DNA from: a virus
DNA: 64,000 bases
Reading direction: 5' to 3' (one strand)
Virus record (IMG/VR): IMGVR_UViG_3300050821_001428
Coordinates: 1 to 64,000 of that record
This document shows positions 34,931-52,294 of this stretch, one piece after another (positions within the stretch are counted from its first letter, which is position 1; each line of letters begins with the position of its first letter). Both the position numbers and the translations under genes were made by a program. The notes beneath the pieces are model-generated. The model had not been told where the DNA came from, searched no databases, and saw only the letters and a program-made list of their open reading frames with translations.

Positions 34931-37900
34931 TTAGCGTCTACCGCGCGAATTTATTCGATTCCCGCCACCGTTCCTGCGCATACCAATAGATCCTCGCGCC
35001 GGATTGCCGCCAGATCGTTCGGCGCGGGAGCGTTCTATATTACCTTGTGAATAATAATAGCTACCATCAGTGTTCATAGGCATTGGGGCACCATTTGGAT
35101 AATTATTTTGTCCCATACCATACCCTCCAGGTGCGCCGCCGACCACTGATGCTTGAGATAACCGCTCACGCATAGTCTGAATCTGTAGATTACCTAGTAG
35201 TGCCCATACTACATCGATTACAGCATCTGCCATATCCTTGGTTTGTACCGGGCCGAGGTCTTGTTTGTCTACGCGGGGGAATTTACCACTAGTTTGAACC
35301 TGCTGTAAGAACTTTAATTCTTCTTTCGAAGTATAACTGTCGATTTCCTCATCATTTGGAGCATGTACTAATCCTTGATACAAGGCTGTTTTAAATACCT
35401 CGCATTTCTTCCAGTTTAACTCCGCAGTTGTAGGTCGCACATAGACCTGACAAGTAATATTTTCTTTATGTAACCTATCTTGAATATCCTGTAATGGGGA
35501 CGAGCTATTATGACTAATGATACCATTAGCTACAAATAGTTCTGGGCCGGGTACAACAAGATCAAAACAATTTGCCGTAGACTCTACAATTGAATCAATA
35601 CGGAAATATTGTAAATCTCCTTCTCTATTCAACTTGGATCTTTTACCAACATCCTTACGACGGCTAATTTGATCTACAATGGCAGATAGTTTATGATTTT
35701 TTCTATCAGAGCAGAAACCAATCTTTTTATGGAATTCTAGAATGTCTAAACCGAACATTTTGACACGCCATTCTTGCTGAGGGGTGCCCTTATAAGTGCT
35801 TGCCGCCCCATTCCAAATAGTCGAATATATTCCTAAATTTAACAATAACTGTTGAATACCCTTGGCTAATGCAGCGCTTCTGGTACTACATCCCACAATT
35901 TCATCATTGTGTCTGGAATTAACAGCCCAACCATCACCTTCAAAATAAGCCTTTAAAAAGTTTACGATTACTGATTCTGGGGATTGAAAAATAGCCCAGG
36001 GCACCTCTTTGATATAGGAGTCACCAAAGCATCCTAACTGCGTGAACATTTTAGAGATATATCCCGATGCAGCAATTGATCCATACATAGTGTCAATCTG
36101 TCCGCCTTGAGGTGTTGTATTATGCTTTAGTTCATACCTATATGACCAATCGCCCCCAAAGGTTCTCTCTGCCGCATCCTTATACATATCTAAATAGGTT
36201 TTATCTGAGTTACTAAAACATATATTGGATTCATTAACATAACCTTCGGCTGTTAGCGCCCCCAGTATAAATCCAATATCTTCATTTAATTGTGTGGGGT
36301 ACAAACAACCTTTACGCCTAGAATGCTGTCTCTTCCAATCCAAAACAGCATTATAAGCTAATTTTTCGGTATCAAATCTTCCAATTGTGATTTGATGGTT
36401 GTTTTTGGAGACATTCGCAACCCAATGTTGTTTCGTCTCTGGATTATAACTGACACCTACATATTTAGAACTACCAGAGCCAGTTGGGTGATATTTTTTA
36501 ATATCAACATAGTTTGTTGCTGTCACGTTGTTTTTGCGCACAGCAACATAATCACCCTTTTCAATTTCAGCAATTTCTAACCATTCCCACTTATTGGATT
36601 TATGCCAAGGCTTTATTTTGTTCTTACGAACCCAAAGTCTATGGTCAGTGGTTCCTTCTATACTGTATCCAGGTTTGGTTGTAAGGATTCTCGTTGGCAC
36701 ATGACCTCTGTTGTAAATCTCAGTGGCAGTCACTATCCCTTCCATCGTTTGTACTGGTATATTAATAGTTTTGGTTTTACCTACAGGTAATTCGCCAGCT
36801 AGCTCTTTCAGTGTTTTATTACCACCAATGGTTGGAATCAAAGTGTTTTCATTGAGACATTGGTGTTGGTCCATGGTAATTTCGAATGGATGGAAAATCT
36901 TAGCATAAGTAATAATTTCATCAATAATAGGTGCCCAACGGATAACCTTATTTGGCTGCTTAGAAGGATTCCATCGTTTTATTAAATCGAATACGCAGTG
37001 TTCATTATCTAGACCGGTGACCGGATCGGGCAGGTATTCAATGTGTCCAATGGCAAATCCAAATCCAGCGGTGGTAGAAGAAGGGTCCAAGTGGAATTTA
37101 TAACGATGAAAGCCTGTGTTAATACCGACACCATAGTTGGTAGAAAATGGTTCGTATCCCAACACCATGTCTCCATTCGGCTGGCGCACCAAGCCTATTG
37201 GACGACCATTATACATGCGATCTACCATTGATGGATTTAACCAAGCTTCAGAGATTTCAGCAAATTTACCACGACGCTCAACCTTGTAGGTTTCGGGATC
37301 GGCTGCTTCGGAAGCTCGCGCCTGAATAATAGCGGCCTTATCCTCTTGGCTGAATAACGGACGATCCTGTTCATCCACCTCATCGGGATTCCAATCAGGA
37401 GACACTGTAACCATCTTACCGAGCATCTTGCCTCTGGTACGTGGTTTATATTGTGATTTATAGTAACGATATCCTTCAAACAAAGCCCATGATGGTCCTT
37501 GGAATACAAGACGACGAGGATCACCATTGATTCTTTGATCTGCCAGGTCACTATCGTCGCCCTGAAGCTCGATAGTCATTAGGTCTACAGGCCGGGTCTG
37601 ATCAAATGGCATTAGTCCTAATTCATATAGATCGTGAAACATTCCAACCTTAGAATAAGGTGATGAATTAATGAATAATAATCCATCGGTACCGAACTGA
37701 TCGAGCGATGGACCAGCCGCATTATATACCTCACCAGCCGATGACTTGCTTTCACCAGCGATCATGTGGGCAGCCTCATCGATCGTGACACAATTATGCG
37801 TAATAATCATATCATCAGTAACATATAATCCATTCACATTTGAAACCGTAATACATTGTTGTACGGCCTCTCCTATATATTCAACGTTAACAAGAGCACG

Positions 37901-39547
37901 TCGGCGTCTACTATAAAATGCATAAGGTTTTTGACGAAGTAATTTACGTTGACATCTAAACAAAGGATATTGTCTTAAATCACTAATGCATATCTCGTAA
38001 ATTGGCAGAGGGGACCTAATTACCTTATCTTCTACATATGAAATATTAGGACTAATAGGACGAGAATGTATAGTCGCGTATCCTCCTAGACTACGTACTA
38101 ATTCAACTGTATCTAGCGCTAGTTGATAGGACGTTGTACCTAATTTAATTGCTGAATCTTTTGAGATAGTACCGTCTGTATCTAAAAGTCCCTGGAGTAT
38201 AGATAATCTCTCATCAAATGATCCTCGTAAATATTGTTCCGGTATGAATTTATACTGTCCCGAATGTTTAGATAAACCTAATTGGTGAATAGCATTTCGC
38301 ACCTGATTGAGATGCGTAGGTCCGGTTTTTTTATTAGATTTAACAATTCTGAATTGAATAAGTTCATTAGGATTCTGGATTAGTTCGTGACCATCGGGTA
38401 AAGCCTTACGTACTTCTTCGACAATATCGTTATCTAAATTATAAAAAGCTACACCCGATCTTCCTGAGAAGCTTCCATCTCCTAATAAAGCTCCCAATAA
38501 ATAGGGATCTAGCGGTAACTTCTGAGTATCATACTGTATCACTGGTGCTTGGGGAAGTGCCCACTTATAGTAATCGGGCTTATTACCCCCAGCTTTTTTG
38601 GTTAAATCATTTGCAAATTCTAAAATGGTTTTGGTCTTACCTATATGTGTTTTACGAGGTTGATACAATGTCCATAAATGATCTGGCCCACATGTTGTGG
38701 AGGACCCGTCACTCATAGTTACACGATAGGTGGGTTGTATACCTCGCGGATGTATGTGGGTCACATGTTGTGATTTTCCATCAGAACCTATGATTTCATC
38801 ACCTATTTGTATCTCGCCCATAGTGGTCCAACCATATGGGGTAAGAATTTTGGCATCTAGAGGTTGGGCCATCGTTGCCGATCCACGTAACGTACCGGCA
38901 TTAGCTGCTAGAGCATTACCTCTAAGTCGCGCCTGATCTTTTTTAAAAGTCTGTCCTCTAGCTTTGGCTGATGAAATCTCCCTAATATCGGCCGGTGTCA
39001 TAATACGAATCTCTGTTTCAAGAGAATCAGCGATATATGGTTGGAAAGCTTTATTAGACTCGATACGAGCAACCATGTCGGCGTACTGGAACTTCTTTGC
39101 CTGGGATTCCGAACCAGCAATACATGAGAAATATATTTCCTTCTTGCGGTCAATACCGTAGTATTCACCAGGATTACCAAGCTGGAGCGTTGTCCAGAAT
39201 TTATATGCCATTGAAGTGCCGGTGGTAAACCCCTTAGATGCACGTCGCCCGACCGCCATCTGAATCTCACGGAAATGAGGATATCCATGAGATCGTAGAT
39301 AATCTCTACGTTCGCGGATATTAGGGGAGATAGTTATCTCTGATCCGTTGCGTCCCCCGTTGATCCACTCGGTTAGCACATCCTCTTCCGCGCCTGTCAT
39401 TTCCTCTAAAAAGATTAACTTCAAAAGGACTAGCTGACGAGGATAAAGCGCGATTCCGGCATAATCATCAGACTCAGTGAATTCTTCAATACCAACCCTT
39501 TTGGGCGCTAGTTGATCAATGTTATCTAGTAAACCTAATACACTCAT
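34931..39547 (-). CDS. terL: terminase large subunit with two inteins
   Basis: Walker A GRRASKG, Walker B CVTIDE, SSP coupling motif, nuclease HLDP and KDMADA. Confidence 0.9.
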   Translation of the reverse strand: MSVLGLLDNIDQLAPKRVGIEEFTESDDYAGIALYPRQLVLLKLIFLEEMTGAEEDVLTEWINGGRNGSEITISPNIRERRDYLRSHGYPHFREIQMAVGRRASKGFTTGTSMAYKFWTTLQLGNPGEYYGIDRKKEIYFSCIAGSESQAKKFQYADMVARIESNKAFQPYIADSLETEIRIMTPADIREISSAKARGQTFKKDQARLRGNALAANAGTLRGSATMAQPLDAKILTPYGWTTMGEIQIGDEIIGSDGKSQHVTHIHPRGIQPTYRVTMSDGSSTTCGPDHLWTLYQPRKTHIGKTKTILEFANDLTKKAGGNKPDYYKWALPQAPVIQYDTQKLPLDPYLLGALLGDGSFSGRSGVAFYNLDNDIVEEVRKALPDGHELIQNPNELIQFRIVKSNKKTGPTHLNQVRNAIHQLGLSKHSGQYKFIPEQYLRGSFDERLSILQGLLDTDGTISKDSAIKLGTTSYQLALDTVELVRSLGGYATIHSRPISPNISYVEDKVIRSPLPIYEICISDLRQYPLFRCQRKLLRQKPYAFYSRRRRALVNVEYIGEAVQQCITVSNVNGLYVTDDMIITHNCVTIDEAAHMIAGESKSSAGEVYNAAGPSLDQFGTDGLLFINSSPYSKVGMFHDLYELGLMPFDQTRPVDLMTIELQGDDSDLADQRINGDPRRLVFQGPSWALFEGYRYYKSQYKPRTRGKMLGKMVTVSPDWNPDEVDEQDRPLFSQEDKAAIIQARASEAADPETYKVERRGKFAEISEAWLNPSMVDRMYNGRPIGLVRQPNGDMVLGYEPFSTNYGVGINTGFHRYKFHLDPSSTTAGFGFAIGHIEYLPDPVTGLDNEHCVFDLIKRWNPSKQPNKVIRWAPIIDEIITYAKIFHPFEITMDQHQCLNENTLIPTIGGNKTLKELAGELPVGKTKTINIPVQTMEGIVTATEIYNRGHVPTRILTTKPGYSIEGTTDHRLWVRKNKIKPWHKSNKWEWLEIAEIEKGDYVAVRKNNVTATNYVDIKKYHPTGSGSSKYVGVSYNPETKQHWVANVSKNNHQITIGRFDTEKLAYNAVLDWKRQHSRRKGCLYPTQLNEDIGFILGALTAEGYVNESNICFSNSDKTYLDMYKDAAERTFGGDWSYRYELKHNTTPQGGQIDTMYGSIAASGYISKMFTQLGCFGDSYIKEVPWAIFQSPESVIVNFLKAYFEGDGWAVNSRHNDEIVGCSTRSAALAKGIQQLLLNLGIYSTIWNGAASTYKGTPQQEWRVKMFGLDILEFHKKIGFCSDRKNHKLSAIVDQISRRKDVGKRSKLNREGDLQYFRIDSIVESTANCFDLVVPGPELFVANGIISHNSSSPLQDIQDRLHKENITCQVYVRPTTAELNWKKCEVFKTALYQGLVHAPNDEEIDSYTSKEELKFLQQVQTSGKFPRVDKQDLGPVQTKDMADAVIDVVWALLGNLQIQTMRERLSQASVVGGAPGGYGMGQNNYPNGAPMPMNTDGSYYYSQGNIERSRAERSGGNPARGSIGMRRNGGGNRINSRGRR
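35507..36859 (-). mobile_element. TerL intein 2 (451 aa; LAGLIDADG plus embedded AP2 domain)
   Basis: Q|CLNENT start, ILGALTAEG and FLKAYFEGDG, SHN|S end. Confidence 0.92.
37793..38869 (-). mobile_element. TerL intein 1, class 3 (Ala1, WCT triplet), LAGLIDADG (359 aa)
   Basis: M|AQPLDAKILTP start; DHLW, QCITV and ITHN|C; LLGALLGDG and LQGLLDTDG. Confidence 0.9.
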
Positions 39548-41833: not shown

Positions 41834-41886
41834 ACACTTTACGTTGTTGTATTAGGAAAAACTTATGAGTCGCGCCTGAAACTAAG

Positions 41887-41955
41887 TAGCGGTAGCAGGA
41901 ATCGAACCTGCGTCTATTCCGTATGAAGGAATTTGCCAACCATAGGCTTACCGCC
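41887..41955 (-). tRNA. tRNA-Met(CAT), short D-arm (Met vs Ile2 uncertain)
   Basis: ATTCC-TTCATAC-GGAAT anticodon arm; GGTTCGATTCC T-loop. Confidence 0.65.
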
Positions 41956-41960
41956 AAATA

Positions 41961-42031
41961 AGCGTCTAGTCAGGATCGAACTGACATACTTCGGGTGGAA
42001 GCCGAATTCTCTACCATTGAGATATAGACGC
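41961..42031 (-). tRNA. tRNA-Gly(TCC)
   Basis: cloverleaf; TTCGG-CTTCCAC-CCGAA. Confidence 0.9.
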
Positions 42032-42074
42032 GAAGGATAGCGTGCTAGGTCGTTAACACTTCGCCCACATCATA

Positions 42075-42148
42075 AGCTAAGGGAGAGAATCGAACTCTCG
42101 CAACCATACTTACAAGGTATGTCACCCTACCAACAGGGAGTCCTTAGC
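42075..42148 (-). tRNA. tRNA-Thr(TGT)
   Basis: CATAC-CTTGTAA-GTATG. Confidence 0.85.
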
Positions 42149-42157
42149 GAATTTTCC

Positions 42158-42457
42158 TAGCTCCTATTAGCCGCCGTTCTGGTTTATGCTAACATCTGTC
42201 TCGGGTTACCCCGGCCACGGCATTATCCGTAAACGTGGTCTATCTCCACGATGGCTGCCCTCTACCTTGTGACCTTAGTTTCCCTTAGGTCAGCATCTTG
42301 AGGTCATATCATATGCCGACTAGCTAGGTTCAAACGGATTTCCCCTCCCTGATCTAGTCTCATCTTTACCGGCTTGATTAGGGCCGATCCCCTTTCAGGG
42401 ACACGATAAGGCGAACTTCCTCGATGGATTGGTTACCGCCGCGTTAGCTCGGAACTA
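42158..42457 (-). ncRNA. rnpB: RNase P RNA-like gene (about 300 nt)
   Basis: P1 UAGUUCC/GGAGCUA; P2 GCUAAC/GUUAGC; P4 GAGGAAGUUCGCC pairing with CAGAACGGCGGCUAA (bulged U); P5 UUAUC/GAUAA; P18 CGGG-GUAA-CCCG; J18/2 AGACAGAU. Confidence 0.85.
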
Positions 42458-42464
42458 TGAAATT

Positions 42465-42911
42465 TTAATACCATCCGTGGGCGTAATGAAATGCAAGTGC
42501 CCTAGAAGGGCTTTTATACCTTTCGGTCACATAGTTACCGAAGCCAATCAATTGTCCCAAAACGGTTTTGGGACTTCCGCCATATGCATAGTATTGCTTC
42601 CAACTAGCAAATTGGGCCGAACCAGCACAACCGCTTTGCGAATTATAAGCATTTATATTGACATCACTTGGTGTTGAACTCGATTCCATATACAATATCA
42701 CCCACGCATCATATACCTCGGTATCATTCCAATGATGACTTTTAGCCACGATATCCATTGGTGATAAAGTCTTATGAGTCTTATGATATCTGTACTTATG
42801 TACATTAGTCTTGTTGACCCATTTAAATGGATGAGTTACATGTTGATGTTGATGATTATTATGAAACGGTGATAATGTAATCGCCGCGATTGTTAGAATA
42901 GTAGCAAACAT
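42465..42911 (-). CDS. secreted lytic transglycosylase-like (Apf/Rpf-like) protein
   Basis: signal peptide; ILYMESS, SG.AG.AQ and Y..ERY.SP..A..F...HGWY. Confidence 0.75.
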   Translation of the reverse strand: MFATILTIAAITLSPFHNNHQHQHVTHPFKWVNKTNVHKYRYHKTHKTLSPMDIVAKSHHWNDTEVYDAWVILYMESSSTPSDVNINAYNSQSGCAGSAQFASWKQYYAYGGSPKTVLGQLIGFGNYVTERYKSPSRALAFHYAHGWY

Positions 42912-42916
42912 AAGCC

Positions 42917-43014
42917 TTCCATCCGTAGATTTTGTCGTACCTTTACTTACCTAGTCACCGATTGGATTCGGCTCTTTATACCTTAGACTCACGGACATCT
43001 ACGGAAGAGTGGAA
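42917..43014 (-). promoter_or_regulatory. structured 5' leader, possibly a degenerate c-di-AMP (ydaO) riboswitch
   Basis: TTCCA/TGGAA and TCCGTAGAT/ATCTACGGA stems sequester the GGAAGG RBS; loop contains GCCGAATCC...TGACTAGGTAAG. Confidence 0.4.
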
Positions 43015-43042
43015 TATACTCCTTTTATTTTATTTTACACCA

Positions 43043-43116
43043 TACTCCCACCAGGACTTGAACCTGGAACCGTTCGCGTATAAGACGAATGCACTAACCA
43101 ATTGTGCTATAGGAGT
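43043..43116 (-). tRNA. tRNA-Ile(TAT)
   Basis: TTCGT-CTTATAC-GCGAA; A73. Confidence 0.85.
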
Positions 43117-43143
43117 GAGAAACTGGGAGACTGAAATTGTAAG

Positions 43144-43218
43144 AGGGTAGTGTCGGATTCGAACCGACATAGGCTAGGATCACAACCTAGAACATTAGTC
43201 CAATTATGCTAACTACCC
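43144..43218 (-). tRNA. tRNA-His(GTG)
   Basis: CTAGG-TTGTGAT-CCTAG. Confidence 0.85.
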
Positions 43219-43229
43219 ACAAGCTACTA

Positions 43230-43300
43230 AGCACCTAGCCGGAATCGAACCGGCGTCTACTGCCTGGCAAGCAGTTATAATACCATTATACCATAGATGC
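43230..43300 (-). tRNA. tRNA-Gly(GCC)
   Basis: ACTGC-TTGCCAG-GCAGT. Confidence 0.9.
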
Positions 43301-43304
43301 GACA

Positions 43305-43376
43305 CGCCCTCGGAGAGAATCGAACTCTCGCCCCCGCCATCGGAAAGCGGTGCTCTGGCCGCTGAGCTACAAGGGC
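43305..43376 (-). tRNA. tRNA-Arg(CCG)
   Basis: CCGCT-TTCCGAT-GGCGG. Confidence 0.9.
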
Positions 43377-43431
43377 ATACTCGGCGTTTTTATCTATTAT
43401 GAGAACGCCCAAACTCACAGACTATATTTAC

Positions 43432-44028
43432 TTACTGACTACTCTTGATGTCATTGAAGAGCGTCGTAGCATTACCCACCAGCTTTGGACTGTTGGTAGC
43501 ATTGTCCCAAATAGCTGGACCAAAAACTACTCTTACAAAGCCCTCCCAATATTGGGCATACGTCCGACCTGTGCTCGGATCGACACACATGACATAAGTT
43601 CCACTCGATGGTCCAGAGTATACCCCATTTGGGTCCATCTGTGCTAGAACATTACTGCCAGGAACACTGCCATTATTCGGATCACGAACCTGCATTTGTG
43701 GATTACTTAGCTCTGTATCAGATGCAACCGGTGCTCCAATCGATGAACACGAACCCTCTGGGTGAGGATCACCCATGTTCATAAAGAAGGTAGTAGACTG
43801 TACGCCATTAGCCTGGGCTGTCTCAATATCAATCAATTCTTGACGAATTTGAGAATGGGTGAACACGGGAATCGGTTGGTTATTAACTAGATTAAACGAA
43901 TCTTGATTCTGGGCACGCGATTCTCGCTGGGCGGCGGCATTGACATTATTACCTCCACATGCCGTAATTGCCATGGTAAGTACAATTACGATAGGCACAA
44001 CAATCCATCTGGTCTTAAACTTAGACAC
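43432..44028 (-). CDS. lipoprotein
   Basis: signal peptide with lipobox ITAC; DPNGVYSGPSSGTYVMC. Confidence 0.8.
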   Translation of the reverse strand: MSKFKTRWIVVPIVIVLTMAITACGGNNVNAAAQRESRAQNQDSFNLVNNQPIPVFTHSQIRQELIDIETAQANGVQSTTFFMNMGDPHPEGSCSSIGAPVASDTELSNPQMQVRDPNNGSVPGSNVLAQMDPNGVYSGPSSGTYVMCVDPSTGRTYAQYWEGFVRVVFGPAIWDNATNSPKLVGNATTLFNDIKSSQ

Positions 44029-44030
44029 TA

Positions 44031-44444
44031 TTATTTGGCTCCGGAATAACTTGATGATGGACTCACCGCACCATCAATACAGTTGATATAAATAAATTCA
44101 CTTTGTTGGGCGTTCAACGTTCCGCCATGTGCTTGCTGCGCCAACTCGCACAGTTGGCTCAAATCCGCATATTGTTCCGCCTTTAGAGCAATTACTTCAT
44201 TACCTTGTACGTCTGGGGACTGAATTTGTGCTGTAATGGTTTCAATGTTCTGAAACTGACCATCAATCTCTGATGCGAGATTGGACTGATATCCAATGGA
44301 ATTTCGGATCATCAGAGTTGTACGATTCTCGTTTTGATTGTTAAACCACCAACCAAGTTGCCAACCACCAAATACAATTACAGCAATTATTAGGATTGCT
44401 GTAAACGATCCACCGACAATCACCATCTTTTTAATCTTCTTCAC
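44031..44444 (-). CDS. membrane-anchored protein
   Basis: N-terminal TM helix, GGWQLGWW; paired with the lipoprotein gene. Confidence 0.75.
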   Translation of the reverse strand: MKKIKKMVIVGGSFTAILIIAVIVFGGWQLGWWFNNQNENRTTLMIRNSIGYQSNLASEIDGQFQNIETITAQIQSPDVQGNEVIALKAEQYADLSQLCELAQQAHGGTLNAQQSEFIYINCIDGAVSPSSSYSGAK

Positions 44445-44529
44445 TAATCGTTTACCTTTATTTTAGTTGACCTACACTTCTACAGTGTAGCAGACAAATG
44501 TGATGGCTGAAATGACTGAAAAGTCAAAG

Positions 44530-44602
44530 TACCGGGAGCGAGAGTCGAACTCGCGCACATTAGATTAAAAGTCTACTGCTCTGGCCACTGAGCTACCCCG
44601 GC
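44530..44602 (-). tRNA. tRNA-Lys(TTT)
   Basis: TAGA-CTTTTAA-TCTA. Confidence 0.9.
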
Positions 44603-44605
44603 TTA

Positions 44606-44678
44606 AGCCCTTGACAGGAATTGCACCTGCGACACACGGTTTCGTAGACCGACGCTCTCTCTACTGAGCTACAAGGGC
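44606..44678 (-). tRNA. tRNA-Arg(ACG)
   Basis: CGGT-CTACGAA-ACCG. Confidence 0.85.
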
Positions 44679-44731
44679 TGGTTGGAGAGATTAATAGCTC
44701 TCTCCGGGCTATGATTCTTATTCTATCACGG

Positions 44732-45403
44732 TTAGGCTAGAGTTTCAACCCGATCGTAATCGTACTCCGATAGAGAGTATGCACCCTTGGTAGAAAGGAA
44801 CCCTCCTTTTACATGGTCGTGCATAATCTGTGCTTCGTATACCTGTCCTTCTTCTCCCGAAAGGGCTAATTCGTAAATCTTAGGATGCTCTTCCTTTAGT
44901 TCATCTAGCAACTTCTGGGCAAATATACGTTCATGATCCCTTAGATAAGGAACAATGCTCTTCCCGGTACCATCTCCACGGTAATGAAGGTCACGGTGCC
45001 GTCCGACGCACAGAGGAATCGTACAAACAGATCTAGCAGCATAGCTAACGTAGTTATCAAGCTCCTTCATAAGCCATCTAGGGATGAAGTGATGCCTAGT
45101 AATCCGACCTTCACATTCCCATCCATGTATAGCACAGATGCGGCAGGTTGGCTGGATTTGGGACTCGATCTTACGTAATCGGCGGCGTTCAAGAATCTCA
45201 GGAGGAACTACAATAGTATTAGAAGCTAACCTTAGACGAAATAAGACCTGCTTTTGTGTAAGCCCTTCATCCAATAGATCATCTAATTCTGCATCCTCAT
45301 AGTCGGCAAGAAGTTCCAATTGCTCTACTGTAGCCCGACTTTTTTGATCAAACCAAAAGACTTGGTTAGAACGCGGATCATCAAACCAACGAGCGCGAGA
45401 CAT
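44732..45403 (-). CDS. HNH-family endonuclease-like protein
   Basis: CRIC...TRHHFIPR...PLCVGRH..LH; RBS AAGGAG. Confidence 0.7.
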   Translation of the reverse strand: MSRARWFDDPRSNQVFWFDQKSRATVEQLELLADYEDAELDDLLDEGLTQKQVLFRLRLASNTIVVPPEILERRRLRKIESQIQPTCRICAIHGWECEGRITRHHFIPRWLMKELDNYVSYAARSVCTIPLCVGRHRDLHYRGDGTGKSIVPYLRDHERIFAQKLLDELKEEHPKIYELALSGEEGQVYEAQIMHDHVKGGFLSTKGAYSLSEYDYDRVETLA

Positions 45404-45435
45404 GAACTCTCCTTTCCTAAATTCGGGTTGCAAAG

Positions 45436-45508
45436 TACCGATACGGAGAATTGAACTCCGATTTACGCGCTGAGAACGCGCTGTCCTACACCATTAGACG
45501 ATACCGGC
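45436..45508 (-). tRNA. tRNA-Glu(CTC)
   Basis: GCGCG-TTCTCAG-CGCGT. Confidence 0.9.
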
Positions 45509-45856
45509 TTAGGTTGAATTTTTACTACTTTAGGTTCTTCATTAGCTTTCTTAATTTTTACAATCATCATCTACAATTCTATCCAGGGTAGATATATGTA
45601 TCTATAGCCAGATGTACAAGATTACGCCCCTGTTTAGCGCCGAGGGGCAAGGCGGAAGGACATGGCGGTAGCACCCAGCATACACTTATCCTCAGATTAT
45701 CCCCGCCTTTTCCGCACGGCATTAGGGACCATGAATTTCGTTACAGTTACAAGTACTCCCACGGCATACTGCCAGCCGCTCGTCGGATTAAGTTGTAATC
45801 CAATGACCTCTAGGTGGGGTTTCTACATTAATGATTCAATTAACACAAAAAGTTAA

Positions 45857-45930
45857 TACGTTGCCTCGGAGTCGAACCGAGATTTGCCGAATTAAGAGTT
45901 CGGAACTTTATCCATTTAAGTTAGCAACGC
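45857..45930 (-). tRNA. tRNA-Lys(CTT)
   Basis: CCGAA-CTCTTAA-TTCGG. Confidence 0.9.
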
Positions 45931-45994
45931 TTATTCCTAGCTACTAGGGGTTGAAGGCTTATTTTATTACTTCGTTAATAAGTACTTTTAAAAG

Positions 45995-46077
45995 TACCCC
46001 AGGTGGGACTTGAACCCACAATCTCTTACGAGCAACCGATTTTAAGTCGGTTTGTTATACCAATTCACAACTGGGGC
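45995..46077 (-). tRNA. tRNA-Leu(TAA)
   Basis: ACCGA-CTTAAAA-TCGGT; long variable arm. Confidence 0.9.
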
Positions 46078-46083
46078 GAGAAG

Positions 46084-46154
46084 CTGGAGAATAGGGATTC
46101 GAACCCCAATAGACGGTGCCAAAAACCGTCGTCTTGCCTTTAGACGATTCTCCA
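46084..46154 (-). tRNA. tRNA-Gln(TTG)
   Basis: ACGGT-TTTTGGC-ACCGT; U1-A72. Confidence 0.9.
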
Positions 46155-46170
46155 GTGATTTGTAAAATAC

Positions 46171-46461
46171 TTAATTGTTTAGTTTTCCAGGTTCAACGTT
46201 TGTCGTTGTCGCTGAATCTAGTATAGCAACTTCCTGATCAGAGTCAAGCTTTTTTGCGGGTTTGGGGGTTTTGGTTTTTAGCAACAACTCTTCAAGGATA
46301 TCTCGCTGACGCTGATTATACGGTTGGTTCTTAGTATTGAGAACTATAACACGATAATCGGCAGGGACATCTTGTGATTGACTCCATTTAGTCGCCTTTG
46401 CCGGGTCATGAGTTGTGTAACATGACACGCCACTCTTATAAAATACGCTGTAAATCTTCAT
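46171..46461 (-). CDS. hypothetical protein
   Basis: 96 aa; TAATATATGA motif 2 nt upstream. Confidence 0.6.
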   Translation of the reverse strand: MKIYSVFYKSGVSCYTTHDPAKATKWSQSQDVPADYRVIVLNTKNQPYNQRQRDILEELLLKTKTPKPAKKLDSDQEVAILDSATTTNVEPGKLNN

Positions 46462-46502
46462 ATCATATATTATGTACCGAACTTAGGGTTCGCCATATTT
46501 GA

Positions 46503-46577
46503 TTGCCCCTCTAGGGGTCGAACCTAGATAACTCCTGGTTCAGAGCCAGGCGAGTCTGCCAATTCCTCCAAGGGGCA
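46503..46577 (-). tRNA. tRNA-Gln(CTG)
   Basis: CCTGG-CTCTGAA-CCAGG. Confidence 0.9.
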
Positions 46578-46583
46578 TTAGTA

Positions 46584-46659
46584 TGGCAGAGACAGGATTC
46601 GAACCTGTGATCTCCTGCGTATGAGACAGGCGGGGACGGCCTTACTCCCCTACTCCGCG
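46584..46659 (-). tRNA. tRNA-Met(CAT), initiator-like (C1:C72 mismatch)
   Basis: CCTGT-CTCATAC-GCAGG; 5' CGCGG. Confidence 0.8.
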
Positions 46660-46717
46660 TCGAGCCAAGTTGATATCGCTCAACTTGGAAAGCGCAAGTC
46701 TGTTGCTAGATTATAGC

Positions 46718-47053
46718 TCAGACCGCATGGGTGCCTTCGACACCACGGGCTTCACGCGCGGTGGTGCGCTCTTGTAACTTATCAAGAGCCTCCCCAAGCA
46801 GTACGAGTGCCTGCGCGTTGTAATCGCAGGCGAACTTGGTTGATTGGTAGAACTCAATCCGGTCGACAGCGGCGGCGATCACGCCCTCTACAAACGCACC
46901 GTTCGGCTCTAGGCGGACCCCGCCGCGCGTGAGCATGTGTTCGGCAAGCGGCCCGTTCTGCCATCCGATCGTAAAGCCGACGCCGTAGGTCGTGCCACCG
47001 GCTGGATTTCCGTCGTCGTCAGTGAAGTGATGGCTCTCGATTGTCTGCAACAT
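46718..47053 (-). CDS. Tad1-family cyclic-nucleotide sponge-like anti-defence protein
   Basis: WQNGP...NG...E.VI....DRIEFYQ..KFAC..N..AL..L.EAL..L..RT..R..RGVEGT; RBS AAGGAG; start ATG 47053. Confidence 0.7.
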   Translation of the reverse strand: MLQTIESHHFTDDDGNPAGGTTYGVGFTIGWQNGPLAEHMLTRGGVRLEPNGAFVEGVIAAAVDRIEFYQSTKFACDYNAQALVLLGEALDKLQERTTAREARGVEGTHAV

Positions 47054-47124
47054 CACAGTAACTCCTTTTCTCTCGATTAACGAAATATTGTCAGTATATC
47101 TTTCATCTTGATTGAATTGTACAG

Positions 47125-47208
47125 TGCCGATGGAGGGAGTCGAACCCTCACGTCTGTCAAGACACTGGGATTTGAAGCCAGCATGTATACCAATTTCATC
47201 ACATCGGC
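47125..47208 (-). tRNA. tRNA-Leu(CAA)
   Basis: loop TTCAAAT; long variable arm. Confidence 0.85.
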
Positions 47209-47277
47209 TTGTCTGGTTGCGTGATTTTATCAAGCTAGCATCATATTATTACACGCCATTACCTGCTGCCACGACCA

Positions 47278-47316
47278 TAGCACCACGGAGAATCGAACTC
47301 CGATTACAAGATTGAA
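47278..47316 (-). pseudogene. 3' half of a tRNA (TTC anticodon remnant)
   Basis: TTCAATCTTG...CGGAGTTCGATTCTCCG-TGGTGCTA; 5' half missing. Confidence 0.6.
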
Positions 47317-47323
47317 CTATTTA

Positions 47324-47397
47324 TAGCTCCAGCGGGGTTCGAACCCGCAATCTTTTCCTTGAAAGGGAAACGAGATAAACCATTACTCTATGGAGCC
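47324..47397 (-). tRNA. tRNA-Glu(TTC)
   Basis: TTTCC-CTTTCAA-GGAAA. Confidence 0.85.
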
Positions 47398-47420
47398 AAG
47401 ATTTTCTAGTACGACCTACA

Positions 47421-47451
47421 AGTATAGCAGAGGGCGCTCATACAGTGTCAA
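47421..47451 (-). promoter_or_regulatory. internal promoter of the tRNA array
   Basis: TTGACA-N19 with extended -10 TGcTATACT. Confidence 0.55.
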
Positions 47452-47541
47452 TTTCCGCATCGCTTGTATCTAGGTGCCATATTTTCATCCACAAAGAAAT
47501 ACCACCGACTCTTTTGATGAATTTATCAGGCCGGATTACGA

Positions 47542-47762
47542 CCCTACAACGCTCCAAGGTTTGAGGTTATCGCACGATCCGCCCGGTTCCTGCGCTCCCT
47601 CTTAGTAGGCCCAGATACCCTGGGTTCGGTGCGAGAATTTTGGCCCGGCGTGTTCCGGATCAAGTCTCGCCCGACAGCACTGTGCCGGTTCGTCATGAAA
47701 ATCATGTAGCACATGTGTTGGGCGGCAAGTTCGATAACTTCAAACCTTGGAGCGTTGTAGGG
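47542..47762. mobile_element. 221-bp element bounded by 31-bp inverted repeats (MITE/invertible-like)
   Basis: CCCTACAACGCTCCAAGGTTTGA(G/A)GTTATCG at 47542-47572 and inverted at 47732-47762 (30/31). Confidence 0.6.
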
Positions 47763-47841
47763 GAAGCTTTTCAAGGCTCGCATTTTCCTGACAACAGTCC
47801 AGATGAGAGGAATCGAACCTCCACCGGGGGTTAGCCCGTAA

Positions 47842-47931
47842 CGGAAGGTACGGGGATCGAACCCGTAAGGCACTTTCGTGCTCGTCACTTTTCGAGAGTG
47901 GTCCCATCGCCAACCATTGGGTTGCCCTTCC
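47842..47931 (-). tRNA. tRNA-Ser(CGA)
   Basis: CACT-CTCGAAA-AGTG; long variable arm; G73. Confidence 0.9.
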
Positions 47932-48120
47932 AAGAATTCATCATTCATTGCATGTTCATATGTGCAATTTATAGTTGATCTACCGTCAAGTTCGCATGGC
48001 ATAACGGTTTAGTAAACCGCTCCAATACCGTTATGGTTATATTTCCTTGGCACCAGTGAGGGGACTTTCACCGCCTATCTGCCCGTGGGCTATTCTAATA
48101 ATTAAACTACACTGATGTAG

Positions 48121-48206
48121 CGGAGGGACAGGGAATCGAACCCTGTGGACGCTCATCACGTTTTATACCGTTTCCAGCGATATTCCTAGCCATTTGGGTT
48201 CCCTCC
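48121..48206 (-). tRNA. tRNA-Ser(GGA)
   Basis: TATCG-CTGGAAA-CGGTA; long variable arm. Confidence 0.8.
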
Positions 48207-48252
48207 AAGTGTACGTTCCCGATGACAATTTAACACACTACTTCGCACTTGG

Positions 48253-48459
48253 CTATTTCTTCAAACAGCATAACTTCAGAGCGTCGAGTCGGGGAGCAGC
48301 ACTGCGTGACGCGCGCGTCCCACCTGCTGCTCGCGGATCATCATCGCGGACGGCATCTCGACGCACGGCAACCGACGACAACGGCTCCTGGGAGCCGTAC
48401 TGATCGAAGAAGCCGATCCGAATGCGCTTCTGGAGCGCACGATCACCGTAGTCAGTCAT
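48253..48459 (-). CDS. GC-rich hypothetical ORF or gene remnant
   Basis: GC-rich insert inside the tRNA array. Confidence 0.35.
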   Translation of the reverse strand: MTDYGDRALQKRIRIGFFDQYGSQEPLSSVAVRRDAVRDDDPRAAGGTRASRSAAPRLDALKLCCLKK

Positions 48460-48649
48460 CAGAACGTGAAGTGTATGCCGTTGTCGGAATCCCGCCAGCC
48501 ACAGCTAGTTTACCAGAACTCATACGCGTAAGCCCTGGTCGAGAATAATATACATCACCGGATTCATATCTACAGTATAGCATATCAGACTAGAGTCGCC
48601 AACTTATGGTGACTCCTCATGCTCCTTCCGCCACAAGGTGGATGAGTCA

Positions 48650-48741
48650 CGGATAGAGTGGGGGTCGAACCCACAAGGGCTTATTCATCCTCGTCGCTTT
48701 TCAAGAGCGATGCCGTCGGCCAACTATCGGCTTGCCTATCC
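48650..48741 (-). tRNA. tRNA-Ser(TGA)
   Basis: TCGCT-CTTGAAA-AGCGA. Confidence 0.9.
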
Positions 48742-48746
48742 ATAAA

Positions 48747-48829
48747 AAGCCAGTGTGAGAATCGAACTCACTCCCCGTTATGGGCGATACGTGTTGCAGA
48801 CGCCGGTGTTACCATTCCACCAACTGGCC
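48747..48829 (-). tRNA. tRNA-Cys(GCA) with a long variable arm
   Basis: GCGT-CTGCAAC-ACGT; U73; extra CCC-ATAAC-GGG arm. Confidence 0.8.
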
Positions 48830-48913
48830 GTTATACCCCAATTCCCCAAAAGGGCTGCTGCCGGTCGAGCTAATATTAGCCTTTACCTACTCGGGGTTTG
48901 ATAGGTAGCAAAG

Positions 48914-48986
48914 CTGCTCAGATAGGACTTGAACCTATAACCATCGCCTTAACAGGGCGTTGCACCGCCAATTGTGCTACTGAGCA
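48914..48986 (-). tRNA. tRNA-Asn(GTT)
   Basis: CGCC-CTGTTAA-GGCG. Confidence 0.9.
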
Positions 48987-49170
48987 TTGTTATTCCATCT
49001 TCAACTTCCATGTGACAATTTGAACATAATAAAATACATTTACTAGCTTCTGCTCTCATTTTAGCTAATCCAGGGATTTTACCCTTCCATGCTAAATGGA
49101 ACAACTTCGTAGTGGGATCTATATGGTGAAAATGTAAGGCTCTCATACATTTATCATATCCGCAAATCAC
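48949..49170 (-). pseudogene. HNH endonuclease, probably 5'-truncated
   Basis: CGY.KC..ALHFHH.DP..K...KCILLCSNCH; in-frame TAG upstream; 3' end runs into tRNA-Asn. Confidence 0.65.
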
Positions 49171-49203
49171 ACAGATTGTCCATAAAACCTATGATCCGTT
49201 AAG

Positions 49204-49293
49204 CAGAGGGTAGGGGATTCGAACCCCTGATACACGTCTAAGGTGTATGACGGTTTAGCAAACCGTTCTCGTCAGCCACTTGAGTAACCCTCT
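49204..49293 (-). tRNA. tRNA-Ser(GCT)
   Basis: ACGGT-TTGCTAA-ACCGT. Confidence 0.9.
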
Positions 49294-49383
49294 GAGACTA
49301 CAGTTCGATGACCACTGGTACACAATTAAGGTACGTCAATTTAGCAAACTGATGCAATCGGCCTCTCTGCCAACCTTCCAATA

Positions 49384-50046
49384 CTATACTTCAATCATTA
49401 CCGGTGAATTAAGCGGTTGGTAACGTGCATCCATTATAGCAACATTCCAAACTTCGGTTTCGCCTAATTCGTAATGGCCGAATCCTTCATGAATATGCCC
49501 ACAAATGACATGCTTAGGTTTAATATCCCTAATCATCATGTCACACTGTGCCGATCCCACATGAGGATGTAGTGCGCTGATAACCTTGTCCGCTACTCCA
49601 TAAGGAGGTCCGTGGGTTATAACTACATCCGTATCGGTATCTACGGCCTTATACTTCTCGCTTAGAGTAGCATTATCTCCGTAAAACGCCCAACCCTTTA
49701 GATTGGGAACCCATGGAATACCATAGAATCGAATATCATCTACAATGATAGCCTCATCCTCAAGATAAGTCCATCCTACATCGTAGGTAGTGTCCTTTGC
49801 ATCACCAAATACTGCGTATCTATTCTCCAGAGCGAAATCATGGTTACCAGCGATTACCAATCGGTGTTTTGCTGGCATTTTCATGGTCCAGTCTGAAAAT
49901 TCATTTCTAATCCAACTAGTACAACGATCGGTATCACGATCGTACCGAATCGGACTAATATCCCCCGCTACCACCAGAATATCGGATTCTGGAACCGCTA
50001 CAGGCAAATAGCCATGTAGATCCGAAAGAGCACAAATTGTTGTCAT
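49384..50046 (-). CDS. metallophosphoesterase
   Basis: SDLHG, AGDI, AGNHD, THGPP and CGHIHE. Confidence 0.9.
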   Translation of the reverse strand: MTTICALSDLHGYLPVAVPESDILVVAGDISPIRYDRDTDRCTSWIRNEFSDWTMKMPAKHRLVIAGNHDFALENRYAVFGDAKDTTYDVGWTYLEDEAIIVDDIRFYGIPWVPNLKGWAFYGDNATLSEKYKAVDTDTDVVITHGPPYGVADKVISALHPHVGSAQCDMMIRDIKPKHVICGHIHEGFGHYELGETEVWNVAIMDARYQPLNSPVMIEV

Positions 50047-50057
50047 TTTTCCTTAAG

Positions 50058-50427
50058 TGGACCTGCTCGCATCGAAGCGAGGTGGCCCGTAATCGTCATC
50101 AGAGATTTAGTATAGCATCTTTCTAGGACAAGAGTTACTTCAAGGACAAGCAGAGCTTGTCTCCACCAACTTAGTCTACATCTTAGGGGCGACTAGTAAC
50201 CCCGATTCCTATGCTTCTGTTGACAGGTGCATAGACCCCGTTCTGGCTATTTAAGCAAGAACAGAAAGAACTTCACTTGCACGGATCTCGCTCTTTGCAG
50301 AGAAAGCGCCAGCAGGGATGTTCATAGGACGATATGATTCGCCAGTTAATTGTTTTGCGAGATTTAGGTGTCTCAAAACCGATGCAATTCTTAATTCGTT
50401 TTTACGAGATCGAAACCTTTCAGGCCC
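50058..50427 (-). ncRNA. ssrA: tmRNA
   Basis: 5' GGGCCTGAAAGGTTTCGA pairs with 3' CAGGTCC-A giving G3:U70; T-arm CTCGC-TTCGAT-GCGAG; internal tag ORF ending VLA-stop at 50251. Confidence 0.85.
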
Positions 50428-50462
50428 GTTGAAGAGAGGCAGCTTGTAATTGTAATTTGCTA

Positions 50463-50882
50463 TCATTTTTTACGTTGGTCGATACGTCTACACTCTTTGC
50501 ATTTATGTCTAGGTCTAAATGACCCATCTTTATTTGGCTCAGTATGTAAACTAAAATTATCCACAGGCAAAAATTGCTGATGCCCATGACACCACCACAT
50601 CCCTTCGGGATAATTGTTTTTATGTGGTGCTTGATTTCTTTTAATATTACAATTAAGATGTGAAAATGCAATGTTATCTAAATCCCAAAATAGATCATCA
50701 GGATTTTGAAGCCAAGGGATTTTGTGTTCAACAGATAATTCCTGAGCACACTCAATCGGTTTTTCACATACAAAACAAATATCTCTTCCGCTCTGTTGTA
50801 CAAGTTGGAAAAATATTTGTTTTCTGAGTCGAGCATAGGCAGTTGTAGTATACATACCTAACATGCTACGATAGCGTTCCAA
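50463..50882 (-). CDS. HNH endonuclease-like protein
   Basis: CFVC...SVEHKIPW...NIAFSH..CN plus a C-terminal zinc finger; start uncertain. Confidence 0.7.
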   Translation of the reverse strand: MERYRSMLGMYTTTAYARLRKQIFFQLVQQSGRDICFVCEKPIECAQELSVEHKIPWLQNPDDLFWDLDNIAFSHLNCNIKRNQAPHKNNYPEGMWWCHGHQQFLPVDNFSLHTEPNKDGSFRPRHKCKECRRIDQRKK

Positions 50883-50935
50883 AGATTTAGATTCTTATTT
50901 CATCATCTATTATATCTATGGACTATTACATTTCT

Positions 50936-51006
50936 GTAACTATAACGGTCCTAAGTAGAAATCCTACCTACACGGTAATAGCGTAACATAACTTCGAACG
51001 CTGCCC
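50936..51006 (+). other. 23S rRNA helix 69-70-like sequence fragment
   Basis: exact GTAACTATAACGGTCCTAAG, then colinear CCTACCTACACG and AATAGCGTAAC (compare CCGACCTGCACG and AATGGCGTAAC). Confidence 0.75.
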
Positions 51007-51024
51007 ATTTTTGCTACCTCTCAG

Positions 51025-51096
51025 TAGACAGAGAGGGATTCGAACCCTCAACCTCCCGCATGTCAAGCGGGTGCGCTACCATTGCGCTATCCGTCT
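51025..51096 (-). tRNA. tRNA-Val(GAC)
   Basis: CCCGC-TTGACAT-GCGGG. Confidence 0.9.
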
Positions 51097-51112
51097 GATT
51101 ACTACTTGTAAG

Positions 51113-51185
51113 TACCCAATCTGTGAATCGAACACAGTCAATAGGGGCATGTAAAGCCCTTGCCGTCCCATCTGGCTCATCGGGT
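51113..51185 (-). tRNA. tRNA-Val(TAC)
   Basis: AGGGC-TTTACAT-GCCCC. Confidence 0.8.
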
Positions 51186-51222
51186 ATGGTGGGCAAGCAA
51201 GCTTTTGAACTACACTTGCCCT

Positions 51223-51273
51223 TGGCCGCATCCGGGAGGATTTCAACCTCGCCTACAGAACTAAATCGGATGC
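51223..51273 (-). ncRNA. anticodon-less tRNA-like minihelix
   Basis: GCATCCG/CGGATGC acceptor-like stem, GAGG-TTGAAAT-CCTC T-arm, 3' GGCCA. Confidence 0.45.
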
Positions 51274-51305
51274 TTTATTGAGGGTGGGTGGTCCCCCATC
51301 CTCAG

Positions 51306-51377
51306 CGGTTCTAGAGAGAATTGAACTCTCGTATGAGGCTTGACAAGCCCCCGTAATATCCACTATACGATAGAACC
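51306..51377 (-). tRNA. tRNA-Asp(GTC)
   Basis: GGGGC-TTGTCAA-GCCTC; G73. Confidence 0.9.
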
Positions 51378-51386
51378 TAATTGTAA

Positions 51387-51457
51387 CACCCCATCAAGGT
51401 AACGCTCCCTGGTCTTCGGGTTTGGAAGCCGACGTTTTGCTATTAAACTAATGAGGT
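51387..51457 (-). tRNA. tRNA-Trp(CCA), atypical T-loop
   Basis: loop TTCCAAA; T-loop AGCGTTA; acceptor ACCTCAT/ATGGGGT. Confidence 0.7.
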
Positions 51458-51663
51458 TTTAAGAGGCCAAGACCATAGGTAATCTACCTTCCAAGCACTA
51501 CCTGGGTCTTAATGACCTACAGTAATAATAAACACTGATCGCACCCCTGAGTAGCAGTCAATAAGGAATTGTCCACATAGTGCCAGCTATATAGGTTTCA
51601 GAGAATACAGCCCTGGCAGGCTAATCTCTTGCGATGGCGAGTTATGTACTGGTCGCCACAGTA

Positions 51664-51715
51664 AGACTGCATTCGGATTTGAGCCGAAATGCGCTACCCA
51701 TCGTAGCATGCAGCC
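51664..51715 (-). ncRNA. tRNA-like element lacking the anticodon arm
   Basis: GGCTGCA/TGCAGTC acceptor; GCTAC-GATGG-GTAGC arm; TTCGG-CTCAAAT-CCGAA T-arm. Confidence 0.5.
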
Positions 51716-51839
51716 GAAAAATAAGTAGGCATCCTCTGTTCTAGACCAGAGCCTTTTGGTTATTCTTGAGCGCCTATGTCAAGGTTTTCCATATCTAGGA
51801 CTTTAAACCGACAGAGCTTTTCCCTTGAACCTACTTATA

Positions 51840-51911
51840 AGCCAACTATGAGAGTCGAACTCATTCTTTCTACTTACGGGGTAGACGTGCTTCCGTTGGC
51901 ACTCAGTTGGC
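51840..51911 (-). tRNA. tRNA-Thr(CGT)
   Basis: TCTAC-CCCGTAA-GTAGA. Confidence 0.8.
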
Positions 51912-51920
51912 GGCGGGCTA

Positions 51921-51993
51921 TCAGAGATGAGAGATTTGAACTCCCGATAAATGCTCCCAAAGCACTTGTGTTACCAGACTACACTAATCTCTG
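51921..51993 (-). tRNA. tRNA-Pro(TGG)
   Basis: AGTGC-TTTGGGA-GCATT; C1-G72. Confidence 0.85.
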
Positions 51994-52226: not shown

Positions 52227-52279
52227 TGGAAGATAAGGGAGTCGAACCCCTTCGCACACTAATTAATATCTTAGTCCCC
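52227..52279 (-). pseudogene. Ala-like tRNA remnant/minihelix without an anticodon arm
   Basis: 5' GGGG...AAGGGGTTCGACTCCCTT-ATCTTCCA. Confidence 0.45.
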
Positions 52280-52294
52280 ATCATAAATAGATAG

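Follow-up and report, generated by a model that had tools for sequence, protein, structure and literature searches.

We analysed a 64,000-nt stretch of viral DNA (the window), comprising positions 1 to 64,000 of the IMG/VR virus record IMGVR_UViG_3300050821_001428, and identified within its tRNA gene array a 300-nt element on the minus strand that is very probably a phage-encoded homolog of bacterial class A ribonuclease P (RNase P) RNA. RNase P RNA is the ribozyme that trims new tRNAs, and it is regarded as the product of a single-copy, essential cellular gene. The element is a real, conserved and structured RNA that has strongly diverged, and its most likely function, as far as sequence can indicate, is ribozyme activity with the host protein RnpA. 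A divergent, phage-borne RNase P RNA in the tRNA array had been proposed from the letters of the window alone (the sequence-only reading), and this proposal is now supported by a chain of homology, by covariation, by synteny and by the absence of rnpA from the phage.

The element is held in a 316-nt gap without open reading frames (ORFs), which is bounded by the stop codon of a 148-aa ORF (42465-42467) and by a tRNA-Thr gene (42148). The whole gene and its parts, given in the 5' to 3' order of the minus strand, are as follows.

42158 to 42457, minus strand: whole RNase P RNA-like gene (300 nt, from the P1 5' end to the P1 3' end), recognized from the ORF-free gap, the syntenic homologs L058, L059, L060 and L063, and the covarying family alignment A2.
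42451 to 42457, minus strand: P1 5' strand UAGUUCC, 7 bp with GGAGCUA at 42158-42164, read from the sequence; RNAalifold also predicts P1.
42443 to 42450, minus strand: P2 5' strand GAGCUAAC, of which seven of eight positions pair with 42186-42193 (GUUAGCAU).
42422 to 42441, minus strand: P3 hairpin, CGGCGG and CCAUCG around an 8-nt loop, with five of six pairs; from RNAalifold on nine homologs (columns 26-31 with 42-47).
42409 to 42422, minus strand: conserved region I (CR-I) and P4 5' strand GAGGAAGUUCGCCU, with a bulged U at 42414.
42403 to 42408, minus strand: P5 5' strand UAUC(GU), pairing with (AU)GAUA at 42307-42312 and extending to 6 bp in the closest subgroup.
42313 to 42402, minus strand: reduced, remodelled specificity-domain region of ~90 nt between the P5 strands; from RNAalifold on the window, L058, L059 and L063.
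42297 to 42306, minus strand: J5/15 (UGA), P15 5' strand CCUC and AAG, mapped via the Rfam alignment of L093.
42270 to 42292, minus strand: P16/P17-like hairpin inside the P15 loop, read from the sequence; all members have a hairpin there, with differing sequences.
42259 to 42266, minus strand: L15 GGUA and P15 3' strand GAGG, aligned to the model positions GGGUa and ggcc in L093 and identical in all members (a block of the retrieval pattern).
42217 to 42250, minus strand: two hairpins between P15 and P18, at 42234-42250 and, with an AUAAUG loop, at 42217-42230.
42193 to 42213, minus strand: P18 (CGGG-GUAA-CCCG; GUAA-capped hairpin at 42202-42213) and J18/2 GAGACAGAUG.
42169 to 42185, minus strand: J2/4 (AAACCAGAAC) and P4 3' strand GGCGGCU (the CR-V equivalent), aligned to ACAGAA-UCCGGCUU of other members.

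The catalytic domain follows the canonical order: after P1, P2 and P3 come the P4 pseudoknot and its bulged U, then P5, the adenosine of J5/15, P15 and the GGU of L15, P18 under its GNRA cap, and finally J18/2 and J2/4. P1, P2, P4 and P18 were confirmed where the sequence-only reading had placed them. P1 forms 7 bp on the minus strand. The P2 core, GCUAAC (42443-42448) with GUUAGC (42188-42193), can be extended to eight positions, covaries across the family and shows three double compensatory changes between the window and L058. P18 is capped by GUAA and followed by J18/2, as proposed; the GNRA cap sits on other stems in L058 and L063 (AUGC-GAGA-GCAU and CCUA-GAAA-UAGG), and J18/2 has six invariant positions and two more conserved at 90% or above in A2. 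P3 contains a single C.A mismatch in the window. The P4 strands, GAGGAAGUUCGCC (42410-42422) and CAGAACGGCGGCUAA (42167-42181), showed both the bulged U and the compensatory changes that had been claimed for them. When they were compared with the canonical GAGGAAAGUCCGGA in an ungapped register, seven of the eight counted pairs were kept, the outermost being U.C in the window, and the bulged U at 42414 was at the canonical position. The AG of the canonical AAAGUC (pairs A-U and G-C) is GU in the window, compensated to G-C and U.G. These two positions are AG in every cellular-context copy found here, and they are altered in many phage copies (CU, CC, UU, GG or GU), always with compensation. Compared with the CR-I/CR-V consensus (GAGGAAAGUCC; ACAGAA..GGCUUA), the window copy keeps GAGGAA, the bulged U, the C after the bulge and CAGAA, and departs from it in the compensated AG to GU change, in the first A of ACAGAA, which is C, and in CUUA, which is CUAA.

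Two other helices differ from what the sequence-only reading had described. The 3' partner that it had assigned to P5, GAUAA (42223-42227), is the loop of a separate hairpin, and the family alignment pairs UAUC (42405-42408) with GAUA (42307-42310). It had also described P15 as reduced, with no clear L15 GGU, and had taken this to fit substrates without an encoded CCA. Both parts are present: P15 is CCUC (42300-42303) with GAGG (42259-42262), and the adjoining GGUA (42263-42266) contains the L15 GGU at 42264-42266. They were mapped to the model via L093, in whose Rfam alignment GCAA, CCUC and AAG represent J5/15 and the P15 5' strand, and GGGUA, GAGG and GCA represent L15 and the P15 3' strand. 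The argument that tied a missing L15 to CCA-less substrates therefore falls; the L15 loop of class A RNAs binds the tRNA 3' CCA. The junction A at 42304 aligns with the GCAA junction of the model and is invariant in A2; it corresponds in position to E. coli A248. Between P15 and P18, hairpins whose loops are of the AUAAU or AUAAA type recur in L058, L078, L093 and L100.

The relationship to other phages was established by synteny. A 179-aa ORF downstream of the tRNA Thr-Gly-Met trio that follows the element has homologs on contigs L058-L061, and the window and these contigs share the order small ORF, ~300-nt element gap, tRNA Thr-Gly-Met, 155-aa ORF and 302-aa ORF. The position of the element is kept although the flanking proteins of these phages are only 57-63% identical. 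In those contigs, the gap aligns with the window element and has the conserved single-stranded blocks UCGAGGAA, GACCUCAAG, AGGUAGAGGGCAGC, GAGACRGAUG and CAGAA, whereas the P1, P2 and P4 strands differ in a compensatory manner: P2 is GAGCUAAC/GUUAGCAU in the window versus GAACGGUC/GAUCGUUU in L058, and the inner P4 pairs are CGCC/GGCG in the window versus CAUG/CAUG in L058. L063, the element of the complete phage G007, matched the window genome at 42254-42422 (E = 6e-6), and L058 matched L063 with E = 1e-20. Within the tRNA array of L058 lies a further translation-related gene, the 109-aa ORF at L058:5907-6236, which has a domain of the RF-1 type (peptide chain release factor/peptidyl-tRNA hydrolase).

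A retrieval pattern was constructed from blocks of the window and L058 only (GAGGAA, 100-130 nt, CCTCAAG, 20-50 nt, GGTAGAGGGCA), and it retrieved three IMG/VR loci, 40 metagenome loci and 10 loci in species-representative genomes. Approximately 25 of the 43 viral and metagenome loci carry a canonical or near-canonical CR-I (GAGGAAAGUCCGGACA) and CR-V (ACAGAAUCCGGCUUAC); the remaining retrieved loci look like chance matches or unrelated coding sequence. Most of the curated members (17/23) lie in loci with 2-37 tRNA genes, with the element and the tRNAs on the same strand. A tRNA ends 0-3 nt before P1 in eight members and starts 3-10 nt after P1 in seven, and transfer-messenger RNA (tmRNA) occurs alongside the RNase P-like RNA in arrays L064 and L082. 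The matches of the recovered RNAs to the Rfam model RNaseP_bact_a span the full model, and their scores are graded as follows.

L093: 121.1 bits, E = 6.9e-37; no tRNAs nearby (cellular type).
L090: 120.8 bits, E = 3.2e-36; no tRNAs nearby (cellular type).
L088: 86.9 bits, E = 2.6e-25; between tRNA genes.
L067: 69.9 bits, E = 1.6e-19; between tRNA genes.
G008: 49.4 bits, E = 1.8e-15; 150-kb phage, 93% complete.
G007: 39.2 bits, E = 5.5e-12; 160-kb phage, complete.
G006: 19.6 bits, E = 7.5e-6; 50-kb phage, complete.
Window copy: below 7 bits, no E-value; the phage of the window.

The portals of G007 and G008 are 73% and 68% identical to that of the window, and the G007 element lies ~10 kb upstream of the portal gene, as it does in the window. 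G006 (IMGVR_UViG_3300049801_000012) is a complete 50.5-kb phage with direct terminal repeats, a portal unrelated to that of the window and at least 18 tRNA genes; its RNase P-like RNA (L062:10279-10546; 263 nt) fits tightly between two tRNAs, at distances of 0 and 7 nt. Since G006 carries the element together with an unrelated portal, the gene is found in at least two phage lineages. L090 and L093 each have a twin in a contig of a metagenome-assembled genome (MAG), L106 and L107 respectively, where the neighbours are Mrp/ApbC, transporter and dehydrogenase genes and no tRNA gene is close, and we read L090/L106 and L093/L107 as cellular RNase P RNAs. The RNase P RNAs of L106 and L107 both adjoin an Mrp/ApbC-type P-loop NTPase gene, while the MAG labels are Proteobacteria and Chloroflexota; this common synteny suggests one lineage, with one label doubtful.

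Covariation was assessed in alignment A2, which comprises 19 members and for which the P2, P4 (pseudoknot), P5 and P15 columns were supplied to the test. Paired cells amounted to 94.4%, compared with 72.4% in shuffles; 16 of 24 pairs were changed on both sides, and cells with changes on both sides numbered 96, compared with 28.3 +/- 4.7 in shuffles. The covariation score was 0.532 versus 0.123 in shuffles, none of the 500 shuffles reached 0.532, and the score fell to 0.05-0.12 when the partners were slid by 1-3 columns. By helix, P4 was 98% paired with six of eight pairs covarying, P5 was 100% paired with all four pairs covarying, and P2 was 84% paired with six of eight pairs covarying, a few rows being misaligned there; P15 was invariant, but it had belonged to the search pattern. 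Nearly every untruncated member forms a P1 of 7-12 bp from unrelated sequence. RNAalifold on nine members, with the helices not supplied, predicted P1, P3, P4, P5 and P15, and 20 of the 30 predicted pairs were compensated. The row of the window itself formed 18 of 20 non-block pairs at the family columns (binomial P ~2e-6). The covariation in homologs that the sequence-only reading had called for was thus observed, strongly for P2, P4 and P5, and also for P1 and P3. The compensatory changes of the core helices relative to L058 and L063 argue for ongoing selection on the fold.

The ~90-nt specificity-domain region consists of a GAAA-capped hairpin (42388-42401), a second hairpin (42370-42386), the junction GGUAAAGAUG and nested helices (42318-42359). 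In the closest subgroup (the window, L058, L059 and L063), 15 of 23 predicted pairs, including the extended P5, carry compensatory changes. P13 and P14 are absent from the window copy, as they are from the cellular relatives.

Several results weigh against the assignment to RNase P. A match of the window copy to an Rfam covariance model had been suggested as a check by the sequence-only reading, which had named the lack of such a match as evidence to the contrary; the window copy gave no match, and the homologs scored 20-121 bits, so that only the homologs rescue the RNase P call. The gathering cut-off of RNaseP_bact_a is 100 bits. No RNase P family matched the window copy at the gathering threshold or, on a 511-nt slice, at E <= 10, and single-family searches of the 144-kb record with RF00010, RF00011, RF00373 and RF02357 at E <= 10 gave no match; RF00010 yielded only fragments of 5-7 bits on the window copy. 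The same models did find RNase P RNAs in 8-13 of 14 control genomes, including those of domains other than their own. Profile hidden Markov models built from other members (with the window, L058 and the pattern blocks excluded) ranked the element first in the genome, with E = 0.1-0.3 only, and family membership consequently relies on structure, on synteny and on three short blocks. The AG to GU change in P4 and the change of the first A of ACAGAA to C also count on this side, as does the failure to recognize, in the ~90-nt region, CR-II and CR-III (the J11/12 and J12/13 modules of class A), which are the specificity-domain modules that read the tRNA elbow. Furthermore, since the pattern itself contained the P15 and L15 blocks, their identity in all members is a product of the search. 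Among relatives of the phage, the cultured Gizmo, Pupper and E3 showed neither an RNase P RNA match nor the P15/L15 block, and two fragmentary IMG/VR relatives gave no sign of the element; its absence from several relatives indicates that the gene is not universal in this phage group.

Other searches also returned nothing that could be used. A scan for loose P4-like motif pairs found 12 in the real genome versus 12.1 in shuffles, the exact CR-I 16-mer had 32 matches in IMG/VR, all by chance, and blastn of the element against GenBank phages gave no match, with no relative among 50,697 GenBank phage records. The portal-based IMG/VR relatives L035-L044 and G001-G005 contained no copy of the element; among them, only G004 has a tRNA array, which is tightly packed with ORFs. 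Rhodococcus phage E3 has no tRNA array near its portal. The terminase and a 303-aa ORF, used as IMG/VR anchors, found no relatives, and the tRNA-Thr anticodon arm, used as a probe, gave 0 matches.

With respect to other explanations, the most serious is that the element is a true RNase P RNA homolog which is no longer a ribozyme, being a decaying relic, a decoy that binds RnpA, or a scaffold that binds pre-tRNAs and modulates host tRNA processing. We consider this unlikely but worth keeping in view. No other family member is as divergent as the window copy, which is invisible to all Rfam models; its P4 is altered at the AG of AAAGUC, its specificity domain is reduced with CR-II/CR-III unrecognizable, and several phage relatives lack the gene, which is hence dispensable. 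Against loss of activity, all core helices are held by compensatory changes relative to L058 and L063, and the features linked to catalysis or docking (the bulged U, the J5/15 A, the L15 GGU, J18/2 and J2/4) are retained. The same P4 positions are changed in many phage copies, always with compensation, so that these changes look tolerated rather than degenerative.

Two further readings would deny the relationship itself. One, which we regard as highly improbable, takes the element for an unrelated structured phage RNA whose likeness to RNase P RNA is accidental and which might be a new class of non-coding RNA or, for the tRNA operon, a leader or processing signal. The lack of a covariance-model match for the window copy, the equal frequency of loose P4-like pairs in shuffles and the comparable folding of other array gaps fit this view, but a pattern made from the element and L058 alone recovered Rfam RNase P RNAs of up to 121 bits, five copies in tRNA arrays or complete phage records matched with E = 7.5e-6 to 2.6e-25, a syntenic ortholog in the related phage G007 did so with E = 5.5e-12, and the helices follow the RNase P order, pseudoknot included, and covary. 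This reading is already close to being refuted. The other, to which we give the least credence, is that the region has no function, being a spacer or what is left of degraded tRNA or protein genes. The single-sequence fold z-score is only -2.3, and gaps of 200-500 nt without ORFs are common in the array, as are like z-scores among them; conservation of position and compensatory helix changes, across phages whose flanking proteins have diverged so far, speak against a spacer. A tmRNA was dropped as a candidate, with none found in the genome by ARAGORN and no Rfam tmRNA match at E <= 10, and so were a Y-RNA-like RNA, a group I intron and a GOLLD/ROOL RNA, for which neither Rfam nor ARAGORN gave a signal. 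Taken as a whole, the explanation that we favour, a phage RNase P RNA homolog and putative ribozyme that works with host RnpA, appears likely; its functional part, that the window copy acts as a ribozyme during infection, we hold to be probable, with a little less assurance.

The element belongs to a 144,267-bp IMG/VR virus record that is ~90% complete, has ~44% G+C and encodes a portal 40% identical to the portals of the Mycobacterium cluster C, Rhodococcus E3 and Gordonia Pupper myophages. The features of this genome that bear on a possible function are as follows.

42075 to 42148, minus strand: tRNA-Thr(UGU), the first of the Thr-Gly-Met trio, which begins 9 nt past P1 (direct reading).
41886 to 54234, minus strand: tRNA array of 30-31 genes, every one on the minus strand.
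21941 to 24805, minus strand: 954-aa protein with a tRNA nucleotidyltransferase (CCA-adding type) domain (PHROG 2244, E = 4.7e-58, residues 509-894).

ARAGORN reported 30 tRNA genes, and Rfam supplied a 31st at 51387-51457 (minus strand; 43.2 bits), which ARAGORN did not report. Encoded CCA is absent at the expected place in 29 of the 30 tRNA genes. The N-terminal ~500 residues of the nucleotidyltransferase-domain protein have no family match. No match to rnpA (PF00825) was found in the phage of the window or in the three other carriers G006-G008. On the minus strand near the element, no sigma-70-like promoter of its own was found, and the search for terminator-like hairpins gave one weak case inside the flanking 148-aa ORF, no more than shuffles give. 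This ORF is an orphan, for which searches returned only the same phage in two other assemblies, from SRR7094834 and ERZ27253567.

From this arrangement, we infer that the element would be co-transcribed with the tRNA array and set free by the cuts that also liberate the adjacent tRNAs, among them RNase P cleavage of the tRNA downstream, which begins 9 nt after P1. That tRNA-Thr is the presumed substrate, and 5' cleavage there would also set the 3' end of the ribozyme. Because the phage has no rnpA, the element would assemble with host RnpA, and the complex could then cleave the 5' leaders of the ~30 phage pre-tRNAs, so that tRNA maturation would continue even if host RNase P were limiting or had been turned off. 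The tRNA genes do not encode CCA; after the nucleotidyltransferase homolog of the phage itself had added a 3' CCA, the GGU loop that the element has kept could pair with it. On the broader claim, that large phages possess an RNase P ribozyme of their own and put it to use, and that this copy works despite the altered P4 AG, the ~90-nt elbow domain and the lack of a cognate protein gene, we lean slightly towards acceptance.

Other features of the window were noted in passing. Just upstream of the first tRNA of the array, an ORF-free region of 225 nt (54235-54459, minus strand) has a fold z-score of -6.56 relative to shuffles and contains a long hairpin with almost perfect pairing; it may act as leader or regulator, or may terminate the upstream unit. 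Further non-coding gaps of 290-490 nt occur in the array at 51458-51839, 51994-52293, 48460-48746, 45509-45856 and 52569-53062, two of which have fold z-scores near -2.3 to -2.5, and these five could hold further non-coding RNAs, decayed tRNAs or tiny ORFs. The terminase large subunit (34931-39547, minus strand) has 1538 aa, with intein and LAGLIDADG matches in the precomputed Pfam list for this protein and an HNH match in PHROGs. The 984-aa portal (29955-32909, minus strand) shows intein-splicing matches, and the Gizmo portal is annotated with an intein too.

Compared with class A RNase P RNAs (RF00010; E. coli M1 RNA/rnpB and Thermotoga maritima P RNA), the element is alike in the order and topology of the catalytic domain and is tied to them by the graded Rfam scores of its relatives. 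It differs in length (300 nt versus ~350-400 nt), in lacking P13 and P14, in its ~90-nt specificity domain without recognizable CR-II/CR-III, in the compensated AG to GU change of P4 and in its Rfam score of less than 7 bits; it is also virus-encoded, located in a tRNA array and without an rnpA partner gene. The cellular L090/L106 and L093/L107 share with it identical J5/15-P15 (CCUCAAG) and L15-P15 (GGUAGAGGGCA) blocks at the same spacing, and they are likewise without P13/P14, at ~305-315 nt, but they have housekeeping neighbours, canonical CR-I/CR-V, a recognizable P7-P12 and a score of 121 bits. Minimized RNase P RNAs, such as the Pyrobaculum type T (RF02357), small Mycoplasma and organellar forms, keep the catalytic domain with a reduced specificity domain, and each is encoded by an essential, single-copy gene in cells or organelles of other lineages. 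The phage element has a similarly reduced specificity domain, but it gives no type T match and keeps a structured remnant of ~90 nt. Mycobacterium cluster C or Bxz1-like phages carry tRNA arrays and tmRNA, and the element likewise lies in a tRNA array, that of a myophage whose portal shows a distant relationship to them; in contrast, the phage of the window has no tmRNA, and Gizmo, Pupper and E3 have no RNase P RNA match. A full-text literature search found no report of a virus-encoded RNase P RNA.

A viral branch of RNase P RNA would add tRNA 5' maturation to the steps of translation that phages carry, beside tRNAs, tmRNA and CCA-adding enzymes. The family also provides a natural mutational series, in which Rfam scores fall from 121 to less than 7 bits while the fold is kept, and which would show which supposedly invariant features of P4 and the specificity domain are dispensable; structural and engineering studies would, in addition, gain a set of small candidate ribozymes. 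Annotation that depends on Rfam has a blind spot here, as the window copy was found only via synteny and covariation. If the proposed function is true, the element, with no cognate protein gene, would borrow host RnpA or act alone, its excision from a transcript punctuated by tRNAs would mean that an enzyme is matured together with its own substrates, and a virus would have taken charge of an essential step in host tRNA processing.

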